Source: a virus
Lineage: Duplodnaviria > Caudoviricetes
Length of the DNA stretch: 64,000 nt
IMG/VR virus record: IMGVR_UViG_3300032219_002765
Span: 15,693 to 79,692 of that record
Direction: 5' to 3' (one strand)
Of the stretch, positions 26,427 to 32,489 are shown piece by piece. Every line of letters starts with the position of its first letter. The first letter of the stretch is position 1. The notes beneath the pieces are model-generated. The model saw only the letters and a program-made list of their open reading frames with translations. It was not told the DNA's origin and ran no database searches. The position numbers were made by a program, and so were the translations under genes.

Positions 26427-26769
26427 TGGGCAATGCCTCCAGTGCGCGGCGAATGGTGTCCCCGAGTCCATTGAGATGAAGACAGTCGCTGGACTCAGCT
26501 TCATCCAACGCATAAAGCGCCTGCTCCTTCAAGCTTGGCGGCTTGGGGCGGCGGGCGGCGCGGAGTTGAGGGTCCAAGCACCAGCCAGTGTTTATTTCTT
26601 TGCTCAGCCACCAACAACACGCCTCCAGCTCCTGGTCGGCACCCCAGCGGGCGGCTTGGGTGGCAATGTGATCCTCAAGTTGAATGTGTTTGACCTTGCT
26701 CTTATACCAGTCTTGGCGCCACTTATCTTGAAGCTCAAGCGGTGGGGTAATTGGGTGTTGGTTAGTCAT
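26419..26769 (-). CDS. Cyanophage hypothetical protein
   Basis: HPITPP.EL...W...IATQAARWGADQELEACC...LRAARRPKPPSLKEQAL pattern recalled from cyanophages. Confidence 0.75.
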   Translation of the reverse strand: MTNQHPITPPLELQDKWRQDWYKSKVKHIQLEDHIATQAARWGADQELEACCWWLSKEINTGWCLDPQLRAARRPKPPSLKEQALYALDEAESSDCLHLNGLGDTIRRALEALPND

Positions 26770-26968
26770 TCCAATGACGCAGGACGCCTGCGCAGATAAG
26801 GGTGTTGGTGATCATGTAAGTACCTAGAATCAACAACCGTACAAAAGCCACTTGATCAGCCACGCGGTTATGGTGGTGCGCTTTTTCTCCGAGAGCTTTA
26901 GCGATAATCCGCCACAACCGCGACGACAAAGAAGCAAGCGGGAGCCCAGTTGATTGAGACTTGCTCAT
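26762..26968 (-). CDS. Small membrane protein
   Basis: WRIIAKALGEKA...ADQVAFVR..I...Y.ITN..I.AGVLRHWN pattern recalled from cyanophages. Confidence 0.65.
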   Translation of the reverse strand: MSKSQSTGLPLASLSSRLWRIIAKALGEKAHHHNRVADQVAFVRLLILGTYMITNTLICAGVLRHWND

Positions 26969-26977
26969 CAGAAAAAG

Positions 26978-27023
26978 TTGATGCTTGAAAAAAGGAGGTG
27001 TTGATGCTTGAAAAAAAGAGGTG
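26978..27023. repeat. Tandem 23-bp direct repeat at the tRNA-Leu 3' end
   Basis: TTGATGCTTGAAAAAAGGAGGTG (26978-27000) and TTGATGCTTGAAAAAAAGAGGTG (27001-27023), one mismatch. Confidence 0.9.
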
Positions 27024-27104
27024 TCACGGGCGGGATTTGAACCCGCAAGAGCAATGCCCGACGCATTTTAAGTGCGTTTCGTATACCGATTCCGACACCG
27101 TGAC
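27022..27104 (-). tRNA. tRNA-Leu (TAA)
   Basis: Cloverleaf: acceptor GTCACGG/CCGTGAC, anticodon arm ACGCA-CTTAAAA-TGCGT, long variable arm, T-arm GCGGG-TTCAAAT-CCCGC. CCA is not fully encoded. Confidence 0.92.
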
Positions 27105-27105
27105 A

Positions 27106-27181
27106 TGGTGCGCGTCGTCAGGATCGAACTGACCTACCGCGAATTATGAGTTCGCTGCCTTCACCAGATGGCTAGACGCGC
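27106..27181 (-). tRNA. tRNA with CAT anticodon (elongator Met or Ile2)
   Basis: Acceptor GCGCGTC/GACGCGC, anticodon arm GCGAA-CTCATAA-TTCGC, T-arm GTCAG-TTCGATC-CTGAC, encoded CCA. Lacks initiator features. Confidence 0.92.
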
Positions 27182-27194
27182 TCAAGGCTCCAAA

Positions 27195-27488
27195 TTAACT
27201 CAGATCGTCCGATAAAAGCGCTTTGTCGTTTTTCTTTGATTTTCCTCTGGTAGCTAAGTGTGCATTGAGTACGTTTACCCGAGAAGAGCACCTGTAATTG
27301 CAATAAGGACCTTTGCGATCAGGGTTTTGCTGTTTAGCAGCGACCCATTTACGCAATTTATGACCCTTTAAAACAAACAAAGAAGCGCAGACGGGGCAAA
27401 CGGCGTGTAAGAAGCGATTTTCCACGGGGTAGAGAAGGAACGTTACCAGTAAACCATGCGCTTTAGCGCACTGCAAGCCTTCAGACAA
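27195..27488 (-). CDS. Cys-containing (zinc-finger-like) hypothetical protein
   Basis: CPVC...PYCNYRC. Confidence 0.55.
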   Translation of the reverse strand: MSEGLQCAKAHGLLVTFLLYPVENRFLHAVCPVCASLFVLKGHKLRKWVAAKQQNPDRKGPYCNYRCSSRVNVLNAHLATRGKSKKNDKALLSDDLS

Positions 27489-27511
27489 AAATCAAGTGTA
27501 TTTTTTGAGTC

Positions 27512-27829
27512 TCAAAGTGGATCTTGCGCAAGAGCAGCCTGCCGAGCACGGGCGTAGCAGTAGCTGATGCCTTTATTCCGCTCAACAGTGCTGGGCTTGG
27601 CTAGATCCCAGACAGCTTTGCAGCGCTCATAATAATTTTCCTGCACTTTAACGTTCTCATTGAAAAAAGTGGTCTGAGAAAGCAGCCCACCTACAGCGCC
27701 TACACAAATTATTGTGCCGATACCGGCAAGACCTGCGACGGTACCGACAGCTAGGACTTTCCACAGCTGCCAAACGGCAACGGTCGGAATCAGATGAGAC
27801 GATTTGAGATCAAGTGGAGGTCGGGTCAA
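27512..27829 (-). CDS. Membrane-anchored hypothetical protein
   Basis: Hydrophobic N-terminal helix; preceded by TGCTATGAT (27856-27864). Confidence 0.6.
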   Translation of the reverse strand: MTRPPLDLKSSHLIPTVAVWQLWKVLAVGTVAGLAGIGTIICVGAVGGLLSQTTFFNENVKVQENYYERCKAVWDLAKPSTVERNKGISYCYARARQAALAQDPL

Positions 27830-27919
27830 GGTCTGATGTGATCTGGAACGAACACATCATAGCACTCTGTGCGCTCAGTCAACCAAAAGCTTCTCGGACG
27901 GGAGCTATAGGAGAAAAAC

Positions 27920-28249
27920 CTATACGCCCCGGATAATGTGTCCGTACTTCCCTTGCATCTCCTTAATGCGCCTCTGAAAATTTGGACTCTGAAGTGCTTT
28001 ATTCATCCGATCTTGAGCTGCAGGATCTTCCTGATCAAAACGAAGATTCGCATCAGGAACGCCAATTTCAAAACTAGGAGAACCAGCAACTAGATAATTG
28101 TCTAAAAACTCAACGGGAGTAGGAAGCGCGTTTGGTACATTCATACTTCCTTGAGCCTCTGGACTGTAACCGCGACCGGGAGGCAGCGCAGAAGTTGCGC
28201 CGGGCAAACTAGGACTAGCAGCTAATAACTGCCCGATGTTTTCGTACAT
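27920..28249 (-). CDS. Hypothetical protein
   Basis: 109-aa P-rich ORF. Confidence 0.6.
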   Translation of the reverse strand: MYENIGQLLAASPSLPGATSALPPGRGYSPEAQGSMNVPNALPTPVEFLDNYLVAGSPSFEIGVPDANLRFDQEDPAAQDRMNKALQSPNFQRRIKEMQGKYGHIIRGV

Positions 28250-28316
28250 GATTAGAACCCTATAAAAATATTTTACTAGTTTTTACTTGTATTAATGATA
28301 AATGCCTTTTATCGAG

Positions 28317-29129
28317 TTAACGAGTATACGGAAGTTTTCCTCTCAGGAAAGACTTAGCCATGTACTCCAGTTCGTTACCAGCTTTATCTACAACGCCAGA
28401 ATCAGCAAGGACTTTACTGGCGGCGATACCAGCAGCAAGTCCTAATCCAGCAGCTCCGGCAGGTCCACGCATCCGTGTGGCAGCAGGAATAGCTCGACTC
28501 AACAATGCACTGGCGCTAACCGCAGCGGCAGGTGCGGCTACCCGAGCAACATCTTCGACAGCAGCCGCAGGAATTCGCCGACTTCCCTGCTGAGCAATAA
28601 AACTATTTAACAAATTCAAAGCTTGCCGTTCAGGAGCGTATTCAGTAAAACGATGTAGTTCAGGAATATCAGCCATCCCAGGTCCGGTAGCCCGAATCGT
28701 TGCACCAGGACGATAAGGATTGTTTCCTAGTTGTAACCCAGGGATACTTAACTGACCTGGAGCCACGCGGGAAGCTAAAGCGTTAATTTCTTCAGCAATG
28801 GGTACATTAACCGGAACAGGGTCAAAAGCTATAAACGGTTGTCCTCTGCGGAAATTTTGTGGGTTTCCAGCTCGTGTAAAAAGGTTACCTTGAAAATATT
28901 CTGCGTTTGCAGGCGTGGGAGTTATCTTTGGTGGGTACAAGGGAAGATCTAACTGCCCTGGAGTTCGAGTAACTGCTTGACTTAAAGCTTCAATTTCAGC
29001 TGCGACGTTTGCAGGAATCGGGTCATAGGCAATAAAAGGTTGGCGCCGACCCGAAAAATTTTGAGGATTTCCTGCTCGGGTAAACAAATTACCCTGCAGT
29101 ACGTCGTTCAAAAGCGCTGAAGGATCCAC
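28317..29129 (-). CDS. Repeat-containing hypothetical protein with QGNLF and QL[D/S][L/I]P motifs
   Basis: Internal duplication of aa 12-64 and aa 80-131; first gene of the leftward block. Confidence 0.7.
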   Translation of the reverse strand: MDPSALLNDVLQGNLFTRAGNPQNFSGRRQPFIAYDPIPANVAAEIEALSQAVTRTPGQLDLPLYPPKITPTPANAEYFQGNLFTRAGNPQNFRRGQPFIAFDPVPVNVPIAEEINALASRVAPGQLSIPGLQLGNNPYRPGATIRATGPGMADIPELHRFTEYAPERQALNLLNSFIAQQGSRRIPAAAVEDVARVAAPAAAVSASALLSRAIPAATRMRGPAGAAGLGLAAGIAASKVLADSGVVDKAGNELEYMAKSFLRGKLPYTR

Positions 29130-29149
29130 TTTAAGTCTAAAAAGCAGTC

Positions 29150-29600
29150 TTGACCTCGAATTATTCTACTCGAACAACGCAAACGGAAAAAAATTTTTAG
29201 GTCTCCCACGAGGGAAAAAAATTTTAAAAAAGGCATCCTACCCCGTTCTGGGGTGGCAAAACTCAGTTTTTGAGTCATTTCGGAGGATAAAACCCGATTT
29301 TTAGCCCCGCGTGGAAAATGTCAGTTTATTAACATACAGGAGGTTTCGCCCCACTTTACCCGCAAGATTATGAAAGTGTTCTCGCCCACCCCGTCGATCA
29401 AAGCGCGTATATAAAAAAAAGGGCGTTTTGCGGGCAGATTGCGGCCAAGTTTGTTACACATAGCGCCAGGGGTTAGTTATATCGGGGTCCTATCACGTTT
29501 TTCCACAGGCAAACATTTAGTTTTATGTAGTTTTACACTTAGTGGGGCACGTTACAACTTTTTAAGTTTGCTTGACAAAGCGGCCGAGCCCATGGTATTT
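29150..29600. other. Divergent non-coding control region (candidate origin/terminus)
   Basis: The coding strand switches here. Contains multiple A/T tracts, short hairpins and DnaA-box-like TTTTCCACA (29499-29507) and TTTTCCACG (minus strand, 29310-29318). Confidence 0.55.
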
Positions 29601-29601
29601 G
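29572..29601 (+). promoter_or_regulatory. Sigma70-type promoter
   Basis: TTGACA-N18-TATTTG with an upstream TG (extended -10). Confidence 0.55.
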
Positions 29602-29963
29602 CGCGAGCGGGCGCGGGCGCGGTTCCGTTACTAGGTGAGCTCGATGCGCAGTGTGCCAATCAAATCACTGACACAAATCTATTGACGGGCGAACCACCCT
29701 GCGAATACCTTTATGGAGTCGGAGGCGAGAGCCCCGGCCGAACCTAGACAACCGAACCAACCCGCGACGGCCGAACGGGCCCCGCGCCTGTCCCTGATGG
29801 TAGGGAGTACCTCCCCGAAGTGTAGGGAATGGCAGGCATGGTGTGCCCCAACGTGAGCGGCGGGAAAGGTAAGGTCTCTAGGTTTGCGAACCTTGACAAC
29901 AGAATAAGTGTAAGCAAGTAGGGAGCCGTGAGGTAACCGAAACGTACTGCGCTTGTTCTTTAA

Positions 29964-29969
29964 TATAAT
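29964..29969 (+). promoter_or_regulatory. -10 element for the early transcript / structured RNA
   Basis: Perfect TATAAT; a start about 5-7 nt downstream coincides with the 5' strand of the first helix. Confidence 0.55.
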
Positions 29970-29973
29970 TCCC

Positions 29974-30470
29974 ATACAGTGTGGACAATGCAGCTGAACC
30001 TAAGTAGGCCATTGGATAAGCACTCTCCACTGTATGTCAGCGGGCATCTTGTCTTTAACTAAGGCAAAGTAGCGACGCTAAACGTCAGCAACTCTCGTCA
30101 GGTTGCAGCTGAATACAACCCTTGTCTGGTTGCAGTTAGTTACAGTTGCCGCAGATTCTATGTCCAGCGTACCTGTGTCTAATGCAGATACGCTGGCCAC
30201 TGGACACTAGTACTTCACCACGGCGTTTCCGTGCGATGGCAGGACTAGTTATCAGCCAGTGATTCATTCTGTGCACTGTAACTAACTGTATGCCTGGCAA
30301 TTTGTTTTAAGTTTCCTCAGAGAAGTTTACTCTGAGCGGTTGCAGATCTGCTGTAACTTGTCAACAGGCAGGATCAATTAAAGATCACATTGGATCATAT
30401 ATGATCATGAGACTTCAGACTCTCTCCTGCTGAGTTTAACTAACTCAGCCCGAGGGATTCATTCTCTCAC
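29974..30470 (+). ncRNA. Candidate large structured RNA / structured early leader
   Basis: Nested helices: 29974-85/30026-35; 30131-46/30275-90 (16 bp, one G-U); 30164-71/30189-96; 30198-203/30256-61; 30206-11/30244-49; 30219-23/30229-33. Hairpins at 30316-36 and 30429-49. No credible ORF. Confidence 0.6.
30372..30407. repeat. Four helically phased GATCA sites
   Basis: GATC at 30372, 30383, 30393 and 30403; 30393-30406 is a perfect 14-bp palindrome. Confidence 0.85.
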
Positions 30471-30500
30471 CCTTCCACTTTGTTTCAACAGGTGTTAATC

Positions 30501-30746
30501 ATGACTGCTACACAAGTGTTACATTATTGCGCATCAAACGATCGCAACGGCAACCCTCAACGTTGCTACGTTCTAGTTGATGCTGACGGCAACAAGTTAG
30601 CTGCCTGGGATGAGGGATACGAAGGCCATCATGCTGTGCCCGATGTATGGCGGGATGCTGCATACGCTGCAGAGCGTATCAATTGCAGCATGACATGGTA
30701 TCGTAAGATGTTACGCACACTGCCTACATATCCTTTCTCACTGTAA
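30501..30746 (+). CDS. Early hypothetical protein
   Basis: Start moved to the ATG at 30501 (TTAATC-ATG context). Confidence 0.7.
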   Translation: MTATQVLHYCASNDRNGNPQRCYVLVDADGNKLAAWDEGYEGHHAVPDVWRDAAYAAERINCSMTWYRKMLRTLPTYPFSL

Positions 30747-30770
30747 TTAACTCACTCACTCTTTAACATC

Positions 30771-31094
30771 ATGTCCCTCACAATCAAGACTAACAACGTG
30801 CCACGTGAAACATTCTGTGGCATGTTAGCTGACATGTTTGTCGGCGAGGCTAAGGCTAATAAACTGCGTGAGCAGTTTGATTATCTAACTGATGAGGAGT
30901 TTGAAGTAACCGACTTCATACAGTATCGCGGTTACTTCTATTCTATGGGTGACTTTATGCGTACAGAATCTAATGCTAGTCATGACCTATCTGGCTGGGA
31001 TGGTTATGCATCAGATAGTTTCTTCAGTGGGGTATGTATTAAGTTTTACGATAGTCCGTATGGTGAAGTTATAGTCGGCACATATTACTGCTGA
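30771..31094 (+). CDS. Early conserved phage hypothetical protein
   Basis: TNNVPR...FDY...YRGYFY...WDGY.SDSFFSG pattern. Confidence 0.8.
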   Translation: MSLTIKTNNVPRETFCGMLADMFVGEAKANKLREQFDYLTDEEFEVTDFIQYRGYFYSMGDFMRTESNASHDLSGWDGYASDSFFSGVCIKFYDSPYGEVIVGTYYC

Positions 31095-32262: not shown

Positions 32263-32475
32263 ATGAAATACACATTTCGCCGCCACGATGGTCGTGGCAA
32301 ACGTTGGTCAGTCTATGCTGCTCGTTTTATTACAGATGTAGGCACAACGTATGCACTCGAATGGTTTGATACATACGAGGATGCAAATCAAGCAGCTGAT
32401 GAGATGAAAGCAGATGGCAGATTCCGTGGAATCTCTATCTACTCACGCAGCCAAGAGACTGCAAACTTTAACTAA
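32263..32475 (+). CDS. Early hypothetical protein
   Basis: AACATC-ATG start. Confidence 0.7.
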   Translation: MKYTFRRHDGRGKRWSVYAARFITDVGTTYALEWFDTYEDANQAADEMKADGRFRGISIYSRSQETANFN

Positions 32476-32489
32476 CACAACTACACATC

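Follow-up and report, generated by a model that had tools for sequence, protein, structure and literature searches.

The region at positions 29964–30470 of the window, which a preliminary description had singled out as a highly structured RNA of about 500 nt, is probably part of a modular, untranslated leader of the early transcript that is ca. 0.75 to 0.9 kb long, is read from the plus strand and is antiterminated through boxA in the style of an rRNA operon. The window is the 64-kb stretch of DNA that was analysed, comprising bases 15693–79692 of a 79.7-kb IMG/VR virus record (completeness estimate, 99%). In the leader, tandem promoter-like sites are followed by a hairpin with a GNRA loop, a boxA, a GC-rich rod, a second boxA, folded domains and then the early genes. 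The element is conserved, folds into helices that covary, carries words identifiable as boxA, and holds a constant position ahead of early genes. The reading as an rRNA-style antiterminated leader was adopted because this layout matches that of a bacterial rrn operon and because phage T7 offers a precedent. The features of the region are as follows.

29329–29357, plus strand: P0, a conserved promoter-like block recognised by alignment of upstream regions; TTAACA, 17 nt and CACTTT in the window, which is weak, and TTGACA, 17 nt and TATTTT in the relative L005
29572–29601, plus strand: P1, promoter-like; TTGACA, 18 nt and TATTTG, with the TTGAC and GTGGTA parts kept in relatives
29682–29711, plus strand: P2, promoter-like; TTGACG, 18 nt and TACCTT, conserved in relatives
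29718–29738, plus strand: 5′ hairpin, GAGA-looped, where a boxB would stand, ending 1 nt before boxA-1
29739–29886, plus strand: GC-rich irregular rod of ca. 150 nt, delimited by independent folds, covariation and strand comparison
29740–29752, plus strand: boxA-1, GAACCTAGACAAC, matching the picocyanobacterial spacer boxA at 12 of 13 positions
29888–29900, plus strand: boxA-2, GAACCTTGACAAC, matching the picocyanobacterial 16S–23S spacer boxA at 13 of 13 positions and followed by the D4-like word AGAATAAG
29901–29959, plus strand: hairpin capped by a GUGA tetraloop, with the basal helix AGAAUAAG/CUUGUUCU
29964–29969, plus strand: TATAAT, within an A/T-rich linker that separates two covarying RNA hairpins and lies 3′ of both boxA copies
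29973–30036, plus strand: variable 5′ domain, closed in the window by CAUACAGUG/CACUGUAUG
30036–30120, plus strand: start of the core, a hairpin with a conserved UUUAACUA loop, covarying stems, a GACG...CGUC helix and the first two CUUGUC words
30122–30300, plus strand: domain C, a three-way junction closed by a helix of ca. 31 bp, delimited by independent folds and covariation
30316–30336, plus strand: hairpin CUCAGAG/CUCUGAG, whose sequence varies; 5 of its 7 pairs are changed on both sides, in a part where the alignment is rough
30345–30406, strand not assigned: GATC array, with GATCA at 30372, 30383, 30393 and 30403
30418–30469, plus strand: terminal stem UCUCUC/GAGGGA, enclosing a covarying hairpin at 30429–30449
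30501–30746, plus strand: first early gene, 81 aa, without a Pfam family

The leader lies within a gene-free interval (29130–30500) that separates a leftward from a rightward gene block. The leftward block, which includes two tRNA genes, ends at 29129; these genes, for tRNA-Leu(TAA) and tRNA-Met(CAT), are on the minus strand at 27020–27181, and the control region lies 2.5 kb to their right. The rightward genes begin with an ATG at 30501, exactly where the first gene had been predicted to start, extend for more than 20 kb and include Kyano_Gp96, an AAA+ ATPase, PolA and a primase. Judged by PolA, the nearest cultured phages are Pseudanabaena phages, with an identity of only 28%, and BLAST of the flagged region against 50,697 phage records returned no match. 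The leader belongs to a clade of uncultured freshwater viruses that resemble cyanophages, and its exact boxA variant makes a picocyanobacterium (Synechococcus, Cyanobium or Vulcanococcus) the likely host of this lineage.

Relatives were collected in several ways. The product of the first gene, used as a query, led to 10 viral loci; a 29-nt pattern taken from the upstream block with the strongest conservation was matched by 16 viral and 37 metagenome contigs, and a pattern combining both strands of the big closing helix by 22 viral contigs, ca. 10 of which were new; a loose scan with a 3′-end pattern returned mostly chance matches and few new members. The same element was found ahead of early genes in more than 40 uncultured viral and metagenome contigs, at 46 to 90% identity to the window. 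Thirty distinct full-length copies were 46 to 86% identical to the window, and a further copy (L077) reached 90%. The order of the landmarks was constant, small early genes followed on the same strand in every copy with enough sequence, and the distance from the leader to the first start codon was 25 to 60 nt, while the identity of the first gene varied among relatives. At the 5′ domain (window 29973–30036), near-identical flanks carry different forms, at least three of which are unrelated; leader modules thus appear to be exchanged by recombination. Extra folded modules are present in some leaders (L006, L007, L011 and L042, ca. 200 nt; L026, ca. 450 nt), where they sit between the positions matching window 30056 and 30120 or within domain C.

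The boxA of the cyanobacterial 16S–23S spacer has been printed as GAACCTTGAAAA (10.1101/2021.01.08.426015). When prokaryote genomes were scanned with boxA and the adjoining D4 word, the rrn spacers of many cyanobacteria were returned. The C variant GAACCTTGACAAC is carried by Synechococcus CS-1330 and UW140, Vulcanococcus limneticus and many Prochlorococcus, and cmscan of those genomes showed it flanked by the spacer tRNAs on one side and the 23S gene on the other. In the 64-kb window only two boxA copies occur at one mismatch or fewer, both of them in the leader and both nearly invariant across relatives. The word after boxA in the relatives, CTGAATAAG, resembles the host D4 word CTGCATAGG, and the host spacer boxA is likewise preceded by a hairpin with a GAGA loop. 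Apart from boxA, no similarity was found between the host rrn leader or spacer and the phage leader; an 8-mer, TAGGTCAC, that the leader and the host spacer have in common was dismissed as a chance-level match. In the spacer before the second gene (window 30752–30770), CACTCTTTAAC resembles the boxA-like GCACTCTTTGAA of the host rrn leader, which lies upstream of 16S (L187 and L243); CACTCTTTAAC is not conserved in the relatives and may be a chance occurrence.

boxA-1 also supplies the 5′ strand for the helix at the base of the GC rod and is base-paired in the predicted rod. The block that forms the rod (29739–29886) is the most conserved part of the element, with ca. 80% identity in BLAST hits and a mean column identity of 74%, and it folds as an irregular rod of ca. 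150 nt in most homologues. In the relative L073 precisely this segment is missing and boxA is present only once, which indicates that the rod is an optional module between the boxA copies. Elsewhere the rod was not found: the search gave it in the leader context only and in no prokaryote genome. Its interpretation as a MITE with a target-site duplication was rejected as the main reading, the flanking "repeats" being boxA. A mimic of 6S RNA, a rod of ca. 180 nt with a large central bubble, was also discarded, since the GC rod has only small internal loops and gave no Rfam hit. A hammerhead ribozyme, whose core is similar to CUGAUGG...GAAG, was dismissed as well, as U4 and A9 of its core are absent in the window and the relatives and there was no Rfam hit.

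The RNA appears to start near 29717, behind the conserved tandem TTGAC promoter-like sites. The predicted P2 start at ca. 29717 adjoins the first hairpin. In the relatives, this hairpin (29718–29738) has GAGA, GCAA, GAAA or GCGA loops and varying stems, or its place is taken by hairpins of other sequence. The basal helix of the hairpin at 29901–29959 shows compensatory changes (AGAAUAAG/CUUGUUCU, AGAAUAGG/CCUAUUCU and AAAUAGUUAGC/GCUAACUGUUU), and its loop is GUGA, GCGA or GCAA on altered closing pairs. Since GNRA loops are meaningful only on plus-strand RNA, they are evidence of plus-strand transcription through these upstream hairpins. Together with the greater stability of the rod and of the whole element on the plus strand, the two hairpins argue for a start upstream of 29740. 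P0, P1 and P2 are regarded as putative promoters. A simple sigma-70 consensus scan of the window called none of P0, P1, P2 and the TATAAT; P0 of L005 scores as a consensus promoter and stands just past a strong terminator that ends the preceding operon. Upstream of P1, all relatives have, at the place of window 29400–29447, a run of eight A residues followed by two or three direct repeats of TTGCGGGCAG(G), a block that proteins might bind, for example as an origin, a packaging site or an operator. Directly after P1, at window 29603–29625, lies an alternating purine-pyrimidine GC/GT tract, which exceeds 100 nt in some relatives (upstream regions of L014, L023 and L024) and could adopt Z-DNA.

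The strong folding that had been predicted for the flagged region was borne out: the plus strand of 29974–30500 folds with −186.1 kcal/mol (z −7.54), and none of 100 dinucleotide shuffles was as stable. The minus strand gave a z-score of −5.46. For the leaders of L005 and L012, z-scores of −11.5 and −8.1 were obtained, and both strands of L012 fold equally well. The helices proposed earlier are present in the sequence, namely the arms of the first helix, ATACAGTGTGGA (29974–29985) and TCCACTGTAT (30026–30035), the 16-nt arms at 30131–30146 and 30275–30290, which are complementary with one G-U, and the pairs CCAGCGTA/TACGCTGG, CACTGG/CCAGTG, ACTAGT/ACTAGT and CACGG/CCGTG. The recurrence of GGTTGCAG is partly upheld, as the copies at 30101, 30128 and 30338 exist and the third is not kept in relatives. 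The CAGCTG loop palindromes, considered as kissing CAGCUG loops, are not conserved among relatives. That the RNA falls outside the known Rfam families was confirmed by the lack of a match in Rfam 15 at the gathering threshold; a covariance search of Rfam 15 up to E = 10 found nothing in 26500–31000, and elsewhere only tRNAs and chance-level matches. The shuffle z-scores and the lack of an Rfam match thus indicate that the dense structure is real and uncatalogued.

Comparison with homologues, which had been proposed as a check, showed that homologues exist and that their helices carry compensatory changes. Covariation was evaluated on MAFFT alignments built without structural information, onto which, for domain C, the window's own fold of 30118–30304 was projected. 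In domain C, 79.5% of the cells were in standard pairs, as compared to 31 to 38% when the 3′ partners were slid by 1 to 3 columns; 33 of the 68 pairs were changed on both sides, and there were 130 compensatory cells versus 60 in shuffles. The pairing and compensation values were reached by none of 500 shuffles. When homologues were folded independently, 23 of 24 gave the shape of domain C, with two hairpin arms inside the closing helix, and L006 adds a third arm. The arm formed by 30206–30223 and 30229–30249 has double changes at 13 of its 17 pairs, and in place of the hairpin at 30164–30196, L011, L021 and L035 have hairpins whose sequences are unrelated to it. The closing helix joins 30122–30155 with 30268–30300 through ca. 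31 pairs, 19 of which are contiguous in the window fold; its core, GUUAGUUACAG/CUGUAACUAAC, is nearly invariant and its outer part covaries. With at least ca. 20 bp between distant flanks, as in RNase III processing stems, the predicted helix is a candidate for such a stem. For the GC rod, 97.3% of the consensus was paired versus 29 to 40% after sliding, 9 pairs were changed on both sides, and again none of 500 shuffles reached the observed values.

Several lines of evidence assign the RNA to the plus strand: boxA, the GNRA loops on covarying stems, the differences in stability between strands and the GC-rod consensus. The consensus energy of the rod was −52.5 kcal/mol on the plus strand versus −35.2 kcal/mol on the minus strand, and for the whole element the plus strand was the more stable one in 27 of the 30 homologues (mean difference, 26.5 kcal/mol). 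The G-U mismatches that had been taken as evidence of polarity turned out not to be informative, as G-U versus A-C counts on the core helices were without strand bias. Since these counts are unbiased and L012 is strand-neutral, the polarity of the core is deduced from its continuity with the upstream part and the genes.

The conserved core comprises 435 nt (30036–30470). CUUGUC occurs in it at 30048, 30121 and 30357, at helix junctions or on the 5′ strands of hairpins, and is invariant across relatives; 3 of the 11 copies in the window are in the 800-nt leader, where 0.14 would be expected. The related AUGUC is present at 30034 and 30159. At the position of window 30068–30120, L061, L005 and similar leaders have GCGACGCAACGGUAGUCGUCACCGU, which can form an H-type pseudoknot (GACG/CGUC and ACGG/CCGU); in the window, the GACG at the corresponding place has two possible CGUC partners. 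Three of the GATC sites, at a spacing of 10 to 11 nt, are kept unchanged in every relative. The genome shows no depletion of GATC (266 found versus 259 expected), and the array is the densest cluster of the window; it could act at the RNA or the DNA level.

At the 3′ end, GAGGGA of the terminal stem can alternatively pair with downstream UCCCUC, UCUCUC or CCCUC. The alternatives UCUCUC/GAGGGA and GAGGGA/UCCCUC are possible in all copies, and the arms are invariant, so that they offer no covariation by which a switch could be judged. In many relatives this second pairing gives a terminator-like hairpin with a U-tract behind it; in about half of them the hairpin precedes UUUGUUGU and is scored as a terminator. 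The L005 leader ends in a called terminator hairpin, GAGGGATTCATCCCTC followed by TTTGTTGT, and no intrinsic terminator was called at the end of the leader in the window. A pyrimidine-purine-pyrimidine triple helix at this end was rejected, the strand sequences being unfit for it. The 3′ strand of the closing helix of domain C, CTGTAACTAAC, is found again at, or immediately behind, the stop codons of early genes (window 30741–30751 and 32466–32476; L005, ca. 2676 and ca. 2958; L014; L038), where it opens a conserved spacer of ca. 35 nt that ends in GATCATG. With one mismatch or fewer, 8 copies were found in the window versus 1.0 expected, and in 304 kb of related loci there are ca. 14 copies outside the leader versus ca. 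0.3 expected, while the complement is almost confined to the leader. This word may be a junction, translation or processing signal that is mimicked or paired by the leader.

The extent and the start of the RNA differ from those first proposed. The conserved RNA runs from ca. 29717, and the flagged 500 nt are its 3′ two-thirds. The TATAAT at 29964 is present as described, and an RNA of ca. 500 nt beginning at ca. 29974 from this hexamer would agree with its perfect sequence and with the presence, in most relatives, of a TAnAAT-like hexamer 7 to 10 nt before the first helix even where the flanks differ. We nevertheless regard this start as improbable. The TATAAT has no −35 element at 16 to 18 nt and was passed over by the consensus scan, the hairpin at 29901–29959 and both boxA copies upstream of it make sense only if they are transcribed, and L073, which lacks the TATAAT element, retains P1, P2, boxA and the core. 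Relatives have TAnAAT-like sequences in most cases, or CATAAC, at this position, and relatives such as L073 lack the hexamer and have other 5′ modules. As the hexamer falls inside the larger RNA, a main start at 29974 is without support, and the TATAAT is possibly the −10 of a secondary promoter, and at most a secondary start. A "split promoter", in which TTGACA at 29893 and the TATAAT would be joined by cruciform extrusion, was rejected since the spacing is unfit and the TTGACA belongs to boxA. The GNRA tetraloops and the presence of boxA, an RNA signal, also make a single-stranded DNA structure, suggested earlier as one possibility, unlikely. A DNA-level role of another kind, as an origin or packaging site with the phased GATC as a methylation-sensitive protein site and with the RNA structure secondary or serving as a pre-primer like ColE1 RNA II, is the least probable of the readings, and in our view very improbable. 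The element does occupy the main control region, with the leftward block on one side and the rightward block on the other, it has the densest GATC cluster of the window with 10- to 11-bp phasing and three invariant sites, the run of eight A residues and the TTGCGGGCAG repeats lie upstream, and the phage encodes a Pol I-family polymerase. However, compensatory changes, GNRA loops and boxA reflect selection on RNA, the GATC array spans only ca. 60 of ca. 800 nt, the phage has its own primase, and a Dam-type methylase was absent among the 20 proteins scanned, a subset of its genes. The GATC array, the A run and the upstream repeats may still act as DNA, though they make up just a small share of the conserved sequence. 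What stands of the first description is a real, large, structured plus-strand RNA that heads the early unit and is not in Rfam; its size and its start had to be revised.

Another reading, which overlaps in part with the antiterminated leader and which we consider unlikely, though less so than a start at ca. 29974 or a DNA-level role, is that the core or the whole RNA is an ornate non-coding RNA cut from the early transcript, acting in trans as a scaffold, sponge or decoy, with boxA serving only its bulk production. The core might then, as a tentative proposal, represent a large ornate phage RNA of a new class, which an rRNA-style cassette would produce in quantity within minutes of infection and which would be freed by cleavage at its long closing helices; it could be, for example, a multivalent sponge for RNA-binding proteins through CUUGUC and GAUCA, or an anti-defence decoy. 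Such RNAs, namely GOLLD, ROOL and OLE, exist in phages and bacteria (PMC12286853). Like them, the leader RNA is large, multi-domain and phage-associated and combines variable with constant parts. Its modular build with optional inserts of 200 to 450 nt, its GNRA loops, the contrast between stems that covary freely and a closing helix, junction and loop nucleotides that do not change, the repetition of invariant CUUGUC and of GAUCA, a long closing helix suited to excision and the terminator-like end in many relatives would all be in keeping with an RNA of this kind. In contrast to GOLLD, ROOL and OLE, whose covariance models gave no match to it, the leader RNA is joined to an operon at its 5′ end and has no conserved self-complementary loops; the palindromic loops proposed for self-assembly are not conserved. 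Moreover, the element is always directly upstream of early genes, on the same strand and 25 to 60 nt from the first start codon, and the window has no clean terminator.

For the boxA-antiterminated early leader, the following course of events was hypothesised. Host RNA polymerase would initiate upstream of 29740, and boxA in the RNA would recruit NusB/NusE and the remaining Nus factors in the way known from rrn transcripts. Thus modified, the polymerase would quickly cross the folded RNA and the terminator-like end hairpin and enter the early genes. The core would be the cargo, with a role in cis, such as processing, stability or the gating of read-through or of translation of the first gene; for the core, we clearly favour a role in cis over one in trans. 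That boxA serves antitermination in cyanobacteria is an assignment made by analogy with Escherichia coli. To our knowledge, cyanobacteria lack Rho, and therefore the benefit of boxA would have to be read-through of intrinsic terminators, elongation speed or RNA folding. boxA leaves the conservation of the intricate core unexplained.

The leader resembles an rrn operon, with its tandem P1 and P2 promoters, boxB-boxA, Nus complex and RNase III stems, in that it likewise has tandem promoter-like sites and is a long, untranslated, GC-rich folded RNA with a domain closed by a helix between distant flanks. With the rrn operon and the boxB-boxA-D4 arrangement of the cyanobacterial spacer it shares a GNRA hairpin followed by boxA, a D4-like word and an identical 13-mer. 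Unlike in rrn operons, the cargo is neither rRNA nor tRNA, protein genes follow, and boxA is present twice, flanking the optional rod.

Antitermination through boxA at phage early promoters is textbook knowledge for T7 and lambda. In the early region of T7, the host promoters A1 to A3 are followed by boxA, and the early RNA contains RNase III sites. The cyanophage-like leader is similar to these systems, including lambda nut and HK022 put, in having a host antitermination signal right behind early promoters for host RNA polymerase; in T7, the boxA antitermination element lies downstream of the early host promoters (PMC3709561). It differs in that the leaders of T7 and lambda are short and have no conserved multi-domain RNA of ca. 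0.8 kb, in that put of HK022 is ca. 70 nt and likewise without such an RNA, and in that the host here is cyanobacterial. A literature search found no description of such a boxA leader in cyanophages. The present case would extend boxA control by phages to hosts with a different boxA, and it joins to boxA a large RNA family of ca. 0.8 kb, multi-domain and supported by covariation, that no Rfam family matches.
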